Virus record (IMG/VR): IMGVR_UViG_2675903578_000013
Reading direction: 5' to 3' (one strand)
DNA length: 5,475 bases
Source: a virus
Lineage: Duplodnaviria; Heunggongvirae; Uroviricota; Caudoviricetes
In this document: in pieces, positions 1 through 5,334 of the stretch
How the letters are laid out: each line of letters begins with the position of its first letter
How positions within the stretch are numbered: position 1 is the first letter of the stretch
Notes under the pieces: model-generated
The model's database searches: none
What the model was told of the DNA's origin: nothing
What the model saw: the letters and a program-made list of their open reading frames with translations, nothing else
Program-made: the position numbers and the translations under genes

Positions 1-101
1 AGCCAGCTTTCCAGGGATTTCAGCAGCGGTTTCGTTTTCAACTGACGTTCGGCAAGGCGCTGTTTCAGCAGGAAGATGTCGTCAGAAGAGATGTCGTTCA
101 T
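1..101 (-). CDS. hypothetical protein, N-terminal fragment (gene continues beyond the left edge)
   Basis: ATG at 101..99 on the minus strand opens a frame that stays open to position 1; hand translation gives MNDISSDDIFLLKQRLAERQLKTKPLLKSLESW, which looks protein-like, while the opposite-strand frame is Arg/Ser/Cys-rich. No clear Shine-Dalgarno. Not in the supplied ORF track, presumably because the window edge truncates it. Confidence 0.3.
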   Translation of the reverse strand, partial: MNDISSDDIFLLKQRLAERQLKTKPLLKSLESW

Positions 102-203
102 AAGCCCGTATTTTACCGGGCTTATTCTGTGACAACCAGGATAAAGAGATTTACAGCATGGTCAGGGAGGTCAGCAGCCGCTTAGGCTGTCTATAGCGCG
201 GCG

Positions 204-319: not shown

Positions 320-1057
320 TCATTCACTCTCTTTCAAACCAGTTTTAACTGTTTGTGGTTTTGGGTAAGGCTGGACTTTGAATAGCTTTGTGTTAAGGCG
401 TTTTCTGGCTCTCTTGTCCAGAAACCGGATGTAACGAAACTGACGGAATTTATGAACACTGGCTCTGTCGATATTAGCCCGCAGATGTTCACCTCGCTGT
501 CCTCCTCGTTTGATTGCATTCTTGCAAATCTCGTGATACCACTCGCCATCAAGTTCATAGAATGTTGTTTCATGACTGCCTACATAATCAAAATTGCTTG
601 CCTGGTACACGACACCAAGACAGCCACAACGCTCATCTGCAAACGACTGAACCCACTGCACCTGCGGATAAAGTTGTCTGATTAGTTTGAGCGCGTAACT
701 GATTGCCCTTGATTCGGAGTTTCTCGGCATACAGTCATGCAGCCATAACCGGTTAAGCTCCATATATTCGCGGTTCTGCGTGCCAGTTACGACGCGTGCA
801 CCATTGTTTGGATTAAGGGCATAACCCCATTGCATTACGCCAACCAGCTCCCGTTCTGAAAATATGCCCAGATGAAGGTAGGAATTATTTACGAAACGAT
901 GGCTGTAATGTTTATTGACGACGACCAGCCGGGCCAGCCAGCAACTTATTGTCTCAACCCGTAACTCACGGGAGCCATAACCGACGATATTGTCGTTATA
1001 GTGAATAAGTTCAGGCGTGCTGATGATACGGGATGTAACTTGCTTTCTGTTCCCCAC
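320..1057 (-). CDS. mom: Mom-like DNA modification protein (anti-restriction adenine modification)
   Basis: The 310-aa open frame (320..1252) has its 5' end overlapping, in another frame, a gene for a Com-like zinc-finger protein, which is the arrangement of the phage Mu com-mom operon. I cannot reproduce the Mu Mom sequence from memory, so the family call rests mainly on this context. Start is uncertain: I place it at GTG 1057..1055, which has AAGGA about 9 nt upstream and overlaps the com 3' end by about 15 codons. The frame stays open up to GTG 1252 and ATG 1219, but those would overlap all of com. Stop codon TGA at 322..320. Confidence 0.65.
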
Positions 1058-1211
1058 GACAGGATTTCCTTGTGTATGTGGGGTGCTCTGTGGCGCTCTG
1101 AGATGTGATTTGATTGAGGGTTTTACAGCGCGGACATTTAACTTCCAGATAACTGAAGCTGGCTCGTGCCAGTAGCTTGTTACAATGTCGGCACCGTATG
1201 TTTCGATACAT
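1011..1211 (-). CDS. com: Com-like zinc-finger translational activator of mom
   Basis: ATG at 1211..1209 preceded by AGGAGG (1227..1222). The product [30 protein letters not shown]... has two CxxC pairs and closely matches my recollection of Mu Com (MKSIRCKNCNKLLFKADSFDHIEIRCPRCK...). The 66-aa size fits Mu Com at roughly 62 aa. The ORF-track entry (1011..1256) begins at a TTG; the internal ATG is the likely true start. Confidence 0.75.
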
Positions 1212-1467: not shown

Positions 1468-1761
1468 ATGGACAATCATGTAACGACGAGAAATCGAAAA
1501 ATGATTGAAAATGCGGAAATCTATAATGATTATTTTTCCGATTATTCAGATGCCTGCAAATACAGTTCGAGTGCGGGAGAGTTCATATGCTTCAACTTTT
1601 TTATTAAATCTTATGTTTTTCCTCCACAGCAAGAAGATGGAGGTGTGCCACCTCCTGAAATCACTTTGCACCGTATAGCCTCCGTCTCAATGATGGAGCA
1701 ACAGGCTAATGAGCTGTATAGCATTCTGGGAACGATTCTACAAAAGCGTGAATCGGACTAA
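1468..1761 (+). CDS. hypothetical protein (97 aa), divergent from com/mom
   Basis: ATG at 1468 preceded by AAGAGG at 5-nt spacing. A 97-codon open frame in AT-rich, stop-prone sequence. No family recognised; the C-terminal half (PPPEITLHRIASVSMMEQQANELYSILGTILQKRESD) looks protein-like. Confidence 0.45.
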   Translation: MDNHVTTRNRKMIENAEIYNDYFSDYSDACKYSSSAGEFICFNFFIKSYVFPPQQEDGGVPPPEITLHRIASVSMMEQQANELYSILGTILQKRESD

Positions 1762-1928: not shown

Positions 1929-2183
1929 TTACATCATGGTACTGTCAGTTCCGGGCTGAGCCGGGTCTGGTTGCTCTGGCTGCGCGTCGGTTTTCGGCTC
2001 ATTATCAGCATCACTGGCCGCAACTGCTGGCCCAATAAGTTTTGCCAGCACTTCATCAACGTAAGTGTCGATTTGTGCCTCAAAATCCTTGCGGACCTGC
2101 GCTTTCAGCAACTTATTTACTTCACCGGAATACAGTGCCTGTTTTACCAGGTCTTCAGTGACGGTGCCTTTAATTTCTGGCAT
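1929..2183 (-). CDS. hypothetical small acidic protein (84 aa)
   Basis: ATG at 2183..2181 with a strong AAGGAGG about 6 nt upstream. Product MPEIKGTVTEDLVKQALYSGEV... is strongly acidic with a Pro/Gln/Asp-rich C-terminal tail. It sits 35 bp downstream of the 60-aa gene, so the two are probably co-transcribed. Confidence 0.6.
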   Translation of the reverse strand: MPEIKGTVTEDLVKQALYSGEVNKLLKAQVRKDFEAQIDTYVDEVLAKLIGPAVAASDADNEPKTDAQPEQPDPAQPGTDSTMM

Positions 2184-2218: not shown

Positions 2219-2401
2219 TCAGGGCTGGGTCGGGTCTTTTGGGAGCGGAGTTACCTGCGCTGTTTTACTGAGTTTTTCAGCTGCTGCGTCCTCAATTTTG
2301 CGGCGAACATAATTTCTGATGGCCTTATAACCACCACTCACCAGATATAACGCACATACTGCCGTGCAGAAATACAATAAAATAAGCTGTAAAAATGTCA
2401 T
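2219..2401 (-). CDS. hypothetical small membrane protein (60 aa, one predicted N-terminal TM helix)
   Basis: ATG at 2401..2399 with GGGAGGG 3-4 nt upstream. Product MTFLQLILLYFCTAVCALYLVSGGYKAIRNYVRRKIEDAAAEKLSK... has a hydrophobic stretch (residues 3-24) followed by a charged segment. The ORF-track entry (2219..2413) starts at an upstream TTG. Confidence 0.55.
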   Translation of the reverse strand: MTFLQLILLYFCTAVCALYLVSGGYKAIRNYVRRKIEDAAAEKLSKTAQVTPLPKDPTQP

Positions 2402-2497
2402 TATCCCTCCCAATTATTGACATGGTGTTGACACCGGTAATATCTGTTAGGTAAAAAGGTGCACTGCATTTTTTGCTTTGGATATAACGATCTTTTT

Positions 2498-2538
2498 GCC
2501 GCCGGTTTCTTGTTTTCCCTTACCGGCGGCATTTTTTT
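2498..2538 (+). terminator. rho-independent terminator, plus-strand orientation
   Basis: GCCGCCGGT (2498-2506) pairs perfectly with ACCGGCGGC (2522-2530), 15-nt loop, followed by ATTTTTTTAT (2531-2540). On the minus strand the hairpin is followed by AAAAAGA, so it is not a canonical terminator for the large minus-strand ORF that ends at 2546. Confidence 0.6.
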
Positions 2539-2545
2539 ATCCTGC

Positions 2546-3723
2546 TTACGCGTTATTCACTTCCACCACGATACTGTCAATCAGTACCGGGTAAGTCGCA
2601 TTTTTAGTGATATCGGTCACGCGCAACTTGTCTGCCGTAAACGTGCCGACCGGAGACTGCGACAGCATGAATGGTGTCCCGTCCTTACCATCAATGACCG
2701 GCGTCACCTCAATACTGTTGTTACCGGCAAAACGGAAGCCCAGCGTATGCCATTCGTTATTAAATGCGCCGAATGACCCCAGCTTCGTGTTCTGCGCCGT
2801 GTTTCCTTTGTGATACATCACGTTAAGGTCTGTGGCATCGCTCTGTACGTAGAACGATGCCAGCAGGTTATGACCGGCATTTCCTTCCAGAGTAACCCCT
2901 TGCGGCAGGGCAGAAACCGGCCAGTACAGCGCCAGTGCGTACTGATTAGCCGTAAGCGCGCCATCGAGTTTAAAACGACAACTGACAAGACCACCTTTAC
3001 CCAGCAGGTCCGCACCATTACCAGCATCATGCTCAAGGTACCAGGGGGCTCTTCCTGTTTCCTTGGTCAGTTTCATTGCCTTACCCCCGCTGGCTCCGGC
3101 ATCATCCACGATTTGAGCCTTGCCACCTCCGGCAGCCCAACCCTGTGGTGTCAACCGTCCTTCAGACTCAGATGCCCGGTAAGCAAATAGCGTACTCATC
3201 GTCGTGGTGTCTGCGGGTGGCGTGGACGGTTTTGATGGTGTATCAGGTGACGGCTTCTCATCCGGTGGTGTCACGGTCTGCCCACGCATCAGTTCAGCCG
3301 TGCGCCCTGCATGGAGCATAATAGCTGAGGCCAGACGGTCTGAAATGACGCCCCTGCGTGCCCATGAGCTGAAATGGCTGTCACGCTGTGTCGAAACAAA
3401 ACTGCCCTGGGTTCGGGATGCTGCACCGTAATACCCGACAGCCACAATATCCGGGTCTTCCGCCGGAGCATTCGTTGGCGTGCTCTGTCCATTCTCATCC
3501 GTCAGGAACGGTACAAAGAAAATTTTCTGTGCTTCCTTGCCTTTGTAGCCACCGTATACTGCCTCATATTTATCGGTGCCAGCGTTTTTCCAGTAATACG
3601 TGGTATCACCGCAAATCCACGGCACCGTGGTGGCATTTCCACTCACGCACTGCGCAGCAAGCGGAGCCAGGTCAGTTCTGAACTGCTGAACCATGGCCGT
3701 GAATAAACTATTATGCTGCTGGC
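2546..3723 (-). CDS. large hypothetical protein, C-terminal 392 aa; the 5' part is hidden in the N-run
   Basis: Continuous open frame from the N-run edge (3723) to stop TAA at 2548..2546. The translation has a globular region with Cys/His-containing segments (VPWICGDTTYYWKNAG ... HFSSWARRGV ... IMLHAGRTAEL), then a Pro/Thr/Ser-rich linker (TPPDEKPSPDTPSKPSTPPADTTT), then a Gly/Asn/Thr-rich C-terminal domain of about 210 aa. No family recognised by eye. The ORF-track frame reaches 4036 through the N's. Confidence 0.6.
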
Positions 3724-4021
3724 NNNNNNNNNNNNNNNNNNNNNNNNNNNNNNNNNNNNNNNNNNNNNNNNNNNNNNNNNNNNNNNNNNNNNNNNNNNNN
3801 NNNNNNNNNNNNNNNNNNNNNNNNNNNNNNNNNNNNNNNNNNNNNNNNNNNNNNNNNNNNNNNNNNNNNNNNNNNNNNNNNNNNNNNNNNNNNNNNNNNN
3901 NNNNNNNNNNNNNNNNNNNNNNNNNNNNNNNNNNNNNNNNNNNNNNNNNNNNNNNNNNNNNNNNNNNNNNNNNNNNNNNNNNNNNNNNNNNNNNNNNNNN
4001 NNNNNNNNNNNNNNNNNNNNN
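3724..4021. other. run of 298 N (unresolved or masked sequence)
   Basis: Literal N characters in the input. Confidence 0.98.
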
Positions 4022-4676
4022 GCAGTTTTTTGGCAATATGCAACCCCTGACCGACAGTCCCGTACTGGCCTTTTGCCAGATCAGCTTTCGGGTGGTTTAT
4101 CCCGCTCATATCCTGAACATCATGCAGGCAGTGGTCTGCCGGAATGATGTCGTTGTATGTACACGACGTACCGTTGGGCGTTACCGTACTGCGGCGTGCC
4201 AGTTGCTTAATNNNNNNNNNNNNNNNNNNNNNNNNNNNNNNNNNNNNNNNNNNNNNNNNNNNNNNNNNNNNNNNNNNNNNNNNNNNNNNNNNNNNNNNNN
4301 NNNNNNNNNNNNNNNNNNNNNNNNNNNNNNNNNNNNNNNNNNNNNNNNNNNNNNNNNNNNNNNNNNNNNNNNNNNNNNNNNNNNNNNNNNNNNNNNNNNN
4401 NNNNNNNNNNNNNNNNNNNNNNNNNNNNNNNNNNNNNNNNNNNNNNNNNNNNNNNNNNNNNNNNNNNNNNNNNNNNNNNNNGGGATTACCGGATACCGGC
4501 ATTACCCATAATGGCTCTTTCGTGCTGAAGCGGATCACGCAGTCTGCGAAGGTGATCCCCCCTTTATTACCCGAAGGGCGGAAAGGGCTTTCAATAAATG
4601 CCACCGTGCCACCGGCAACCTTGACTGAAAACTCTCCGGGCATGGCGGAGAGCATTTTCCACTTGGAGTCTGACAT
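4022..4676 (-). CDS. hypothetical protein, N-terminal part (a separate upstream gene or the 5' part of the large ORF); interrupted by an N-run
   Basis: ATG at 4676..4674 begins MSDSKWKMLSAMPGEFSVKVAGGTVAFIESPFRPSGNKGGITFADCVIRFSTKEPLWVMPVSGNP (4482-4676). The same frame is open across the 63 codons of real sequence at 4022-4211, on the far side of the 270-nt N-run. After the second N-run this frame stops at 3711-3713 while a different frame is open, so the gene either ends inside 3724-4021 or the gap length is not exact. Weak Shine-Dalgarno. Confidence 0.45.
4212..4481. other. run of 270 N (unresolved or masked sequence)
   Basis: Literal N characters in the input. Confidence 0.98.
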
Positions 4677-4749: not shown

Positions 4750-4781
4750 TTCAAAAAAGCGTCACGGTACTTTTGGTGACG
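4750..4781 (-). terminator. rho-independent terminator of the invertase gene
   Basis: On the minus strand: CGTCAC (4781..4776), 10-nt loop, GTGACG (4765..4760), then CTTTTTTG (4759..4752). The hairpin overlaps the last codons and the stop codon of the invertase gene. Confidence 0.5.
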
Positions 4782-5334
4782 GAGCTGGTGAGGCAGGAAA
4801 ATAACGATAAAGGGTGGAAAGGCCAATATCAAATATCAGTGCGATTTGTTTACGGGACTCGCCATTAGCCAGCAAACGGGCGATTTGCTCCCGCTCTTTC
4901 TCTGTCAGTTTCTGAGGTCTGCCGCCATGACGCCCCTGAGCACGGGCAGCAGCAAGACCCGCGCGTGTACGTTCAATAATGAGTTCCCGCTCCATTTCCG
5001 CCAGCGCGCCCATTATATGGAAAAAGAAACGTCCCATGGGAGTGGATGTATCAATATTGTCCGTAATGCTGCGGAAGTTAACGCCGCGTTGCCGGAGTTC
5101 TTCTGTTAAAAGGACAAGGTGCTGCATACTGCGTCCAAGGCGATCCAGTTTCCAGACCAGCAGGGTATCCCCTGGCCGGAGTCGCTTTAATGCGCGTTTA
5201 AGTCCGGGACGCTCCCTTGTCTTACCGCTTATTCTGTCTTCGAAAAACAGCTCACATCCTGCACATTCCAGCGCATTTCTTTGTAGCGCCGTATTCTGGT
5301 CATTTGTTGACACCCTGATATACCCAATCAGCAT
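4762..5334 (-). CDS. pin: serine site-specific DNA invertase, Gin/Pin/Cin/Hin family
   Basis: 190-aa product MLIGYIRVSTNDQNTALQRNALECAGCELFFEDRISGKTRERPGLKRALKRL...GDTLLVWKLDRLGRSM...MGRFFFHIMGALAEMERELIIERTRAGLAAARAQGR...LSTLYRYF matches my recollection of Gin/Pin along its whole length, including the catalytic-serine N-terminus (RVSTNDQ) and the C-terminal HTH. ATG at 5334..5332 with AAGGAA upstream. The symbol is a family-level guess; it could equally be named gin or cin. Confidence 0.9.
   Translation of the reverse strand: MLIGYIRVSTNDQNTALQRNALECAGCELFFEDRISGKTRERPGLKRALKRLRPGDTLLVWKLDRLGRSMQHLVLLTEELRQRGVNFRSITDNIDTSTPMGRFFFHIMGALAEMERELIIERTRAGLAAARAQGRHGGRPQKLTEKEREQIARLLANGESRKQIALIFDIGLSTLYRYFPASPAPSPKVP

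Follow-up and report, generated by a model that had tools for sequence, protein, structure and literature searches.

A NanS-p-type sialate O-acetylesterase gene as probable accessory cargo of a Mu-like transposable prophage

NanS (YjhS), the chromosomal 9-O-acetyl-N-acetylneuraminate esterase, is a protein of one domain and about 326 amino acids encoded in the nanCMS operon. Its catalytic and oxyanion residues are Ser19, His301, and Gln18 (PMC9063846). The NanS-p esterases are well established as accessory enzymes that prophages of pathogenic E. coli carry and that help in the use of O-acetylated mucus sialic acids. The characterised lambdoid NanS-p proteins are active Neu5,9Ac2 esterases, which support growth on Neu5,9Ac2 and de-O-acetylate mucin glycans, and the family has been described as contributing to the fitness of pathogenic E. 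coli; this biochemistry covers lambdoid alleles (PMC8065619). In lambdoid prophages the gene lies between Q/stx and the holin gene, and the N terminus of the protein is a DUF1737 domain. According to a 2026 preprint, phi24B gp84, a lambdoid homologue, decorates the capsid via this domain (bioRxiv 10.64898/2026.04.10.717836). The other system relevant here is the right end of phage Mu, in which gin, com, and mom follow one another in this order and only 94 bp separate gin from com.

The window, a stretch of 5,475 nucleotides of phage DNA, has the same gin-com-mom order, but about 3.5 kb of cargo lies between gin and com: a nanS-p-type gene, DUF1378 and DUF826 genes, and one ORF on the opposite strand. 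A preliminary description of this DNA had correctly noticed the extra DNA relative to Mu, and the coordinates it gave for a large minus-strand ORF were exact, with the ATG start codon at 4676 and the stop codon at 2546-2548. The arrangement is as follows.

4762..5334, minus strand: Gin-type serine invertase gene, the intact upstream neighbour (Resolvase and HTH_7 domains; 74% identical to Mu Gin)
2546..4676, minus strand: nanS-p-type sialate O-acetylesterase gene (Pfam SASA and DUF6645, phrog_143, PDB 3PT5 and 6YP6)
2219..2413, minus strand: DUF1378 small membrane protein gene (Pfam and synteny; annotated start ATG at 2401)
1929..2183, minus strand: DUF826 gene, the third of the trio (Pfam and synteny)
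320..1211, minus strand: com (1011-1211; Com zinc ribbon) and mom (320-1057; Mom), the downstream boundary of the cargo block

Mom is 78% identical to Mu Mom. The same right-end sequence, identical from position 192, was found at three different insertion sites, and the terminal repeats abut variable host DNA, as in Mu-like prophages. Full-length Mu-like prophages with the same gene order carry Mu-type head and tail genes. The large ORF is interpreted, with high confidence, as one gene that encodes a NanS-p-type sialate 9-O-acetylesterase and is accessory cargo of a Mu-like transposable prophage. This assignment draws on homology and domain architecture, on the conservation of catalytic and binding residues, and on synteny together with recombination boundaries. 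Databases already name the protein "sialate O-acetylesterase"; no paper describing the Mu-like variant was found in the literature searched.

The reading frame of the gene is obscured by two runs of N, both of which lie inside the ORF, as previously noted. The pieces visible between them are listed here with the masks.

4482..4676, minus strand: visible part (residues 1-65) of the Mu-type N-terminal module (residue 1 to about 110; alignment, AF2 model, hhalign)
4212..4481, no strand: second N-mask, 270 N in place of 240 nt (residues 66-145)
4022..4211, minus strand: visible middle piece, esterase domain, residues 146-208 (comparison with the reference protein)
3724..4021, no strand: first N-mask, 298 N in place of 252 nt (about residues 209-293)
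3311..3723, minus strand: C-terminal part of the SASA/SGNH type II esterase domain, residue 294 to about 430 (NanS alignment, PMC9063846)
3197..3304, minus strand: Pro/Thr/Ser-rich interdomain linker, residues 433-468, predicted to be disordered (sequence and AF2 model)
2549..3196, minus strand: lectin-like jelly-roll carbohydrate-binding domain, residues 469-684, Pfam DUF6645 (PDB 6YP6, Foldseek)

The ORF pieces in the window look out of frame because the lengths of the masks are wrong. The masks are 46 and 30 nt longer than their counterparts in 99.9%-identical E. coli genomes. When they are replaced by the sequence of these genomes, the span of 2131 nt is reduced to a true length of 2055 nt, that is, one ORF of 684 codons rather than the "one or two" considered before. 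The last visible piece (residues 294-684) comprises 391 residues, not 392. Two motifs of the SGNH fold, CCRGGS and WMQGE, are covered by the first mask. Under the second lie the end of the N-terminal module, a recombination junction at codon ~111, and the nucleophile Ser124 within SGNH block I (GQSN). Resequencing of the masked stretches, which had been advised, is not needed, as many public genomes contain the complete gene.

An alternative is that the N-runs hide disruptions and that, in this genome, the gene is a relic without activity, left in a Mu-like prophage undergoing decay. The 164 codons masked in the window, the nucleophile block among them, are unreadable there, and their intactness was read from the 99.9%-identical genomes. 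The closest copies in complete genomes are located in a prophage remnant of about 10 kb in ypdB, which has many pseudogenes and a frameshifted gin, and another copy of the nanS-p-type gene is annotated as frameshifted. However, all 519 visible codons match the intact RefSeq protein WP_001284083.1 without a stop codon, each of the three visible pieces being identical to it, and this protein represents a cluster of 599 member sequences. The gene is intact even within the ypdB remnant, and the window has an intact gin and a flank from a different insertion site. A relic is therefore improbable.

The preliminary description called the ORF unassignable to any family. Sequence searches of Pfam, PHROGs, and the PDB each gave it an assignment; it is a NanS-p, and two of the three parts of the protein have homologues of solved structure. 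The stretch from residue 110 to 428 aligns with E. coli NanS (PDB 3PT5) over 319 residues, at an E value of 1.8e-117. The Pfam SASA family (PF03629) was matched at 1.5e-13, above the curated cut-off, and phrog_143 at 1.7e-296. In a Foldseek comparison of the AF2 model with 3PT5, the target-normalised TM-score was 0.76. Ser124, His409, and Gln123 align with Ser19, His301, and Gln18 of NanS, respectively; in other words, the Ser-His dyad without a catalytic Asp is common to both proteins. Gln123 and Ser124 are in the GQSN motif; Ser124 is under the mask and was taken from the 99.9%-identical genomes. The codon of His409 is visible in the window at 3374-3376, in the RDSH block within 3311..3723. 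This block IV reads RDSH in the protein of the Mu-like phage, whereas it is RSSH or RASH in NanS and in NanS-p of the Stx2a phage (PMC10462455).

In addition, NanS has neither an N-terminal module nor a lectin domain, and the phage protein extends beyond the esterase domain on both sides. Residues 469-683 match the C-terminal domain of a phage NanS-p, vb_24B_21 (PDB 6YP6), with an E value of 7e-98, and Pfam DUF6645 (PF20350) was matched at 7.4e-68. The target-normalised TM-score between the AF2 model and 6YP6 was 0.93 (Foldseek). The aromatic residues of the sugar site proposed for this domain (PMC10462455), Tyr554, Tyr559, Tyr584, and Phe654, are all kept. The earlier suggestion of a multidomain protein, an enzyme plus a binding domain joined by a Pro/Thr-rich linker, was thus right in its architecture. 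Secretion in the Sec sense is not supported, as no hydrophobic stretch resembling a signal peptide is present at the N terminus.

By analogy with the characterised NanS-p enzymes, from which the substrate, the release route, and the benefit are all inferred, the following mechanism may be proposed. The Ser124-His409 dyad would hydrolyse O-acetyl esters of sialic acid (Neu5,9Ac2 to Neu5Ac), and Gln123 together with a glycine would form the oxyanion hole. The lectin-like domain, connected via the Pro/Thr linker, would hold the enzyme on sialoglycans. Since there is no signal peptide, the substrate, probably the O-acetylated mucin sialic acids of the gut, would be reached at lysis of induced cells or on released phage particles. 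De-O-acetylation would open the sugar to sialidases and to the Nan pathway of E. coli, from which the lysogen population might benefit.

Homologues were found in 349 phage records, mostly of Stx-converting phages, including 933W, whose L0105 is 62-65% identical in the SASA/SGNH and DUF6645 domains. Alleles of lambdoid non-Stx prophages are closer, with identities of up to 89-91% across 84-86% of the protein. The lambdoid proteins have the same catalytic Ser and His and the same sugar-site aromatics; they are likewise prophage-borne and lack a signal peptide, and their genes are likewise followed by DUF1378 and DUF826. These three genes precede the holin gene in two lambdoid cases, 933W and a non-Stx prophage. 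The DNA homology to the latter prophage (87%) runs from nucleotide 331 of nanS-p into DUF1378 and ends at about 2268, and the junction with the lambdoid alleles at codon ~111 is sharp. Judged from these alignments, the esterase body is still recombining with lambdoid alleles, and the N-terminal module alone is specific to the Mu-like context. The nanS-p/DUF1378/DUF826 trio is not restricted to the lambdoid late region from Q to holin but is also present at the gin/com-mom junction of a Mu-like phage, still recombining with lambdoid alleles; it is therefore a mobile cassette common to unrelated phage types. NanS-p itself is a known enzyme family, and the copy described here is a modestly new variant in architecture and context. 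What is unusual is the Mu-like phage host and a front end unlike that of the Shiga-toxin phage versions.

This front end, a module of about 110 residues, takes the place of the DUF1737 domain of lambdoid NanS-p. PF08410 (DUF1737) had no Pfam match in the protein, and the Mu-type N termini could not be aligned with DUF1737 (hhalign probability of 0.2%). The module is predicted to be all-beta, with strands within residues 7-79 followed by a disordered Gly/Ser/Asn linker. The AF2 confidence is moderate here (pLDDT of 63-79 for residues 1-70); for the full protein, the pLDDT value was 60 with a multiple sequence alignment and 31 from the single sequence. A tblastn search of phages and plasmids with the module returned only the nanS-p copies of Mu-like phages. 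These form two lineages that are approximately 60% identical. Inside a lineage the module is near-invariant, while the esterase body ranges from 83 to 100% identity.

When 1.84 billion representative sequences were searched by HMMER with the 65 visible N-terminal residues, the results comprised only fragments of the same protein and five weak matches, and no annotated structural protein resembling the module was among them. Four of the five are mixed repeat-rich proteins (SprB repeats, Big_13/Y_Y_Y, CarboxypepD_reg, fn3), and the strongest, P0125, has only fragmentary Pfam matches. Homology to beta-sandwich repeat proteins was rejected, as the matches are weak and heterogeneous; a beta-sandwich character of the module is at most hinted at. 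A word-indexed search with the N-terminal 115 residues found three fragments only. Comparison by tblastn of the module with the remaining sequence of the Mu-like prophage, and with the 5.7 kb at the right end of Mu, gave only noise.

It should be mentioned that gp84 was found in phi24B virions, where a DUF1737 hexamer sits on the capsid hexons (bioRxiv 10.64898/2026.04.10.717836). Given this preprint, a role in lysogen fitness only may be an incomplete account. The protein might instead be mainly a virion-associated enzyme, in which the Mu-type module anchors the esterase and the lectin-like domain to the Mu-like particle, so that the phage, while spreading or adsorbing, binds or modifies O-acetylated glycans, either those of mucus or polysaccharides of the bacterial surface. 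The exchange is limited to the DUF1737 domain and its linker, with the sharp junction after it. The replacement is confined to copies of Mu-like phages and, within a lineage, varies far less than the esterase body. Its predicted form, a small folded beta domain on a disordered linker, is consistent with an anchor. On the other hand, the module has no detectable similarity to DUF1737, to proteins of the same prophage, or to annotated structural proteins; its model is of moderate confidence; and the gene is outside the morphogenesis operons, adjoining com-mom. Such a role is considered possible, though unlikely on balance. The broader proposal, that NanS-p decorates virions as a modular enzyme and that its N-terminal anchor is swapped according to the particle (DUF1737 for lambdoid Stx capsids, the ~110-residue beta module for the Mu-like myovirus), is likewise considered unlikely. 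If it were true, virions of two unrelated temperate E. coli phage lineages would independently carry the same esterase-lectin for sialoglycans. This would imply a role at the level of the phage in mucus, instead of or besides lysogen nutrition. Because the swapped domain is the reported capsid anchor of phi24B, it offers a testable handle on whether these enzymes serve the phage particle or the lysogen.

SASA domains also occur in the tail proteins of other phages, which is in keeping with a virion enzyme. The catalytic fold is common to the SGNH/SASA domains of phage tail and tailspike proteins. The similarities found were weak matches to the PHROG "tail protein" family phrog_25867 and to a minor tail protein of an Arthrobacter phage, with only 29% identity over the esterase core. 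In contrast to tail and tailspike proteins, the nanS-p-type protein has no tail-fibre or tailspike scaffold, and its gene is outside the tail block. A tail-fibre or structural identity was rejected, since the sole "tail" similarities are these weak matches to a common esterase fold. The homology to a standard structural protein that the preliminary description had set against its own reading was not found in the sense intended, phi24B gp84 being the caveat.

The position of the cargo should be considered as well. The end of the phage genome beside mom is a typical place for accessory genes, and mom has an anti-restriction function. The additional 3.5 kb carries three small ORFs besides nanS-p. 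A 97-aa ORF is among these small neighbours, and like DUF1378 and DUF826 it has no known function. A defence, anti-defence, or toxin gene might be suspected from this setting. However, the esterase had no match in PADLOC, in which DUF826 gave only a marginal one (PbeC, E value of 0.0076), and esterase and lectin domains with solved homologues account for the whole of the large protein. NCBIfam returned nothing for the esterase. Defence or toxin cargo is thus very improbable for this gene. Of the first reading, the domain architecture and the cargo status at the gin/com-mom junction were borne out; the unassignable family, the second ORF, the secretion, and the defence function were not.

Regulation of the sialate esterase gene must differ from that of lambdoid nanS-p. 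The host element is Mu-like and the gene is between gin and com-mom, and therefore control by the late promoter and Q cannot apply. A promoter scan gave no convincing sigma-70 site upstream of the gene. The one promoter-like match, at 4804-4832 inside the 3' end of gin, was rejected, as it is not kept in a gin-deleted copy. Two hairpins border the gene.

4753..4781, minus strand: weak hairpin of 6 bp (10-nt loop) that overlaps the stop codon of gin, with U6 after it (hairpin inspection)
2497..2531, no strand: G+C-rich hairpin of 10 bp just past the nanS-p stop codon, with a T7 tract on the plus side and A-tracts on the minus side

The former had been taken as the invertase's own terminator. 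A candidate hairpin does exist there, but it is weak and was not picked up by a consensus terminator scan; it may act between gin and nanS-p as a leaky terminator. The latter is, as judged from its tracts, a terminator-like structure mainly for transcription of the plus strand.

The large minus-strand ORF, referred to here as nanS-p, lies between a serine invertase gene (gin) and com-mom. The genes of this region are as follows.

4762-5334, minus strand: serine invertase (Resolvase and HTH_7; 74% identical to Mu Gin), 5' neighbour of nanS-p
4676 (ATG) to 2546-2548 (stop), minus strand: nanS-p ORF, broken by two N-runs (3724-4021 and 4212-4481)
2219-2413, minus strand: DUF1378 gene, in the extra block
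1929-2183, minus strand: DUF826 gene, in the extra block
1468-1761, plus strand: 97-codon ORF between DUF826 and com (RefSeq form of 86 aa, WP_000571916.1)
1011-1211, minus strand: com, 3' of nanS-p
320-1057, minus strand: mom, 3' of nanS-p (Mom 78% identical to Mu Mom)

A megablast search of complete E. coli genomes gave 22 records at an identity of at least 99%. Alignment with E. coli DLI.5a shows that the run of 298 Ns replaces 252 real bases and the run of 270 Ns replaces 240; outside the runs, the two sequences are identical except for one synonymous difference. With the true lengths, the visible pieces (residues 1-65, 146-208, and 294-684) fuse in frame into a single 2055-nt, 684-codon gene, whose product is RefSeq WP_001284083.1, labelled "DUF6645 domain-containing protein". 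The preliminary description spoke of one or two long ORFs; the long minus-strand ORF is retained, whereas the apparent second ORF was an artefact of the wrong mask lengths, which put the visible pieces out of frame. The N-runs, which are not length-preserving, resemble masking more than assembly gaps. They hide residues 66-145 and approximately 209-293, and with these the three esterase motifs of greatest diagnostic value, GQSN, CCRGGS, and WMQGE. The family was therefore not recognisable by eye.

The protein had been called unassignable, but Pfam, PHROGs, and PDB sequence searches all place it in the well-characterised NanS-p family. SASA (PF03629) is at residues 117-312 and DUF6645 (PF20350) at residues 533-650, and phrog_143 covers residues 71-684 (E 1.7e-296). 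Residues 110-428 match the E. coli 9-O-acetyl-N-acetylneuraminate esterase NanS/YjhS (3PT5; E 1.8e-117), and residues 469-683 match the crystallised C-terminal domain of a phage NanS-p (6YP6; E 7e-98). These entries were again the top two Foldseek matches of the MSA-based AlphaFold model (mean pLDDT 60), with target-normalised TM-scores of 0.93 (6YP6) and 0.76 (3PT5). The suspected enzyme-plus-binding-domain architecture is thus correct: the Cys/His region, the Pro/Thr linker, and the Gly/Asn/Thr domain noticed by eye are the end of the esterase, the linker of residues 433-468, and the lectin-like domain, respectively.

NanS has Ser19 and His301 but no catalytic Asp, and its oxyanion hole consists of Gln18 and a glycine (PMC9063846). 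Gln123-Ser124 and His409 of the window protein align with Gln18, Ser19, and His301. Four aromatic residues have been proposed as the sugar site in the C-terminal domain of vb_24B_21 (PMC10462455); all four are kept here, as Tyr554, Tyr559, Tyr584, and Phe654. It should be mentioned that SGNH block IV (window 3374-3385, residues 406-409) reads RDSH, as in most non-Stx alleles, whereas NanS and the NanS-p of Stx2a phages have RSSH or RASH. The family is reported to have no catalytic acid; the Asp of RDSH sits two residues ahead of the catalytic His.

Homologues were found by tblastn in 349 phage records, nearly all from Stx-converting phages and including L0105 of 933W, the founding NanS-p. NanS-p enzymes are active Neu5,9Ac2 esterases, which permit growth on Neu5,9Ac2 and de-O-acetylate mucin glycans (review PMC8065619). 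The name "sialate O-acetylesterase" is already on the window protein in databases; no paper on a NanS-p of Mu-like phages was found in the literature searched. The esterase matched no defence-system model in PADLOC. Accordingly, the large ORF at this junction is confirmed with the above corrections, and of the guess of defence or virulence cargo, accessory cargo holds and defence is very unlikely.

The gin-com spacing of phage Mu is only 94 bp, whereas in the window an extra block of about 3.5 kb (nanS-p, DUF1378, DUF826, and the opposite-strand 97-codon ORF) is present; the earlier statement of extra DNA was therefore right. The 97-codon ORF had no match in Pfam, NCBIfam, PHROG, or PADLOC. 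It is conserved in copies of lineage A (the window-type Mu-like nanS-p), and there are weak promoter-like sites at 1447-1476 and 1505-1533. At the matching position, the phage of lineage B (the LC727881/LC727895 type) has another ORF, which is 64 aa long and contains two CxxC pairs.

The nanS-p/DUF1378/DUF826 trio is likewise present in the lambdoid late region, where the order in 933W and in a non-Stx prophage of strain ZH48 is Q, (stx), nanS-p, DUF1378, DUF826, holin. By blastn, the Mu-type locus and the ZH48 prophage share one 87%-identical block, from nanS-p nucleotide 331 (codon ~111, under the second N-run) into DUF1378 (window ~2268). The closest lambdoid alleles are 89-91% identical across 84-86% of the protein. 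In the Mu-type proteins, residues 1-110 are nearly invariant; identity in the body ranges from 83 to 100%, and segments of it are shared with one or another lambdoid allele. The esterase body thus goes on recombining between phage types, and the N terminus remains tied to the Mu-like backbone.

Lambdoid NanS-p carries an N-terminal DUF1737 (PF08410), which the window protein lacks; no alignment to DUF1737 was obtained for its first ~110 residues (hhalign probability 0.2%). DUF1737 is described as a helix plus three strands (bioRxiv 10.64898/2026.04.10.717836), whereas AlphaFold predicts an all-beta module, with strands within residues 7-79 (pLDDT 63-79), followed by a Gly/Ser/Asn-rich disordered linker. 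Exhaustive searches (HMMER, tblastn, and within the prophage) located this module nowhere but in the nanS-p genes of Mu-like phages. What has been exchanged is precisely the reported virion anchor, which makes the swap of interest: phi24B gp84, a NanS-p, is reported to decorate the capsid, its DUF1737 binding hexon centres (same 2026 preprint). By analogy, the Mu-type module might anchor the protein to Mu-like particles, although we consider this rather unlikely.

Q-dependent late transcription cannot apply to the window nanS-p. The only hairpin in the gin-nanS-p gap (6 bp, 10-nt loop, followed by U6) is weak and overlaps the gin stop codon. The invertase had been credited with its own terminator; the hairpin and U6 are there, but the terminator scan did not detect them, so that read-through from gin into nanS-p would be possible. 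The single promoter-like match 5' of nanS-p (4804-4832) is not kept in a copy without most of gin. A strong 10-bp hairpin lies 3' of nanS-p (2497-2531), with its T-tract on the plus strand.

From position 192 inward, the sequence is identical at three host junctions (the window, ypdB, and citF). The outer flank (47-191) is 97-99% identical to the tnpB/transposase junction of an IS66-family (ISEc8) element, and the ypdB and citF junctions of other genomes are absent from window 1-191. This means that the window copy occupies a third insertion site, either next to an IS or within one. A transposing phage would be expected to produce such a pattern. The right end (192-319) contains three direct TTTGATAC copies (209-216, 231-238, and 266-273), plausibly transposase-binding repeats. 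Mu ends begin with a TG dinucleotide, whereas the outermost conserved bases here are TATAGCG.

The Mu-like context of nanS-p is real and recurrent. Of 5426 complete E. coli genomes, 28 have lineage A, at times in two or three places per genome. The full-length Mu-like prophage of JE86-ST05 has DUF935 portal-type, gpT-family head, sheath, tube, tape-measure, and baseplate genes, and its right end carries nanS-p, DUF1378, DUF826, the 97-aa ORF, com, and mom. In this copy (at locus positions 19560-20020), gin is gone except for its last ~75 nt, and the tail-fibre assembly gene therefore directly adjoins nanS-p. Frameshifts are annotated in many of the prophage genes, owing perhaps to sequencing errors or to decay. 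RefSeq also has a "tRNA-OTHER" (locus positions 4049-4128), which lies on the other strand in the interval that separates the head-morphogenesis from the virion-morphogenesis genes.

Lineage B, a Mu-like phage inserted in the Stx phages LC727881 and LC727895, has gin, nanS-p, DUF1378, DUF826, and com. Its NanS-p (680 aa) is 66% identical to the window type overall and 60% in the N-terminal module, and lineage-B proteins are on more than 1000 contigs. After com, LC727881 has a 350-aa ORF in place of mom (locus positions 11420-12472), in which GTPCQAFS and ENV motifs were seen by eye. This would be a C5-cytosine-methyltransferase-like protein, so that a Com-type regulator would here control a DNA-modification gene other than mom.

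The closest complete-genome copies are in a ~10.4-kb Mu-like remnant splitting ypdB (DLI.5a locus positions 9582-20780). Its sheath and transposase-region genes are truncated and gin is frameshifted; nanS-p, DUF1378, DUF826, com, and mom are still intact, a pattern that would fit selection for the cargo end.
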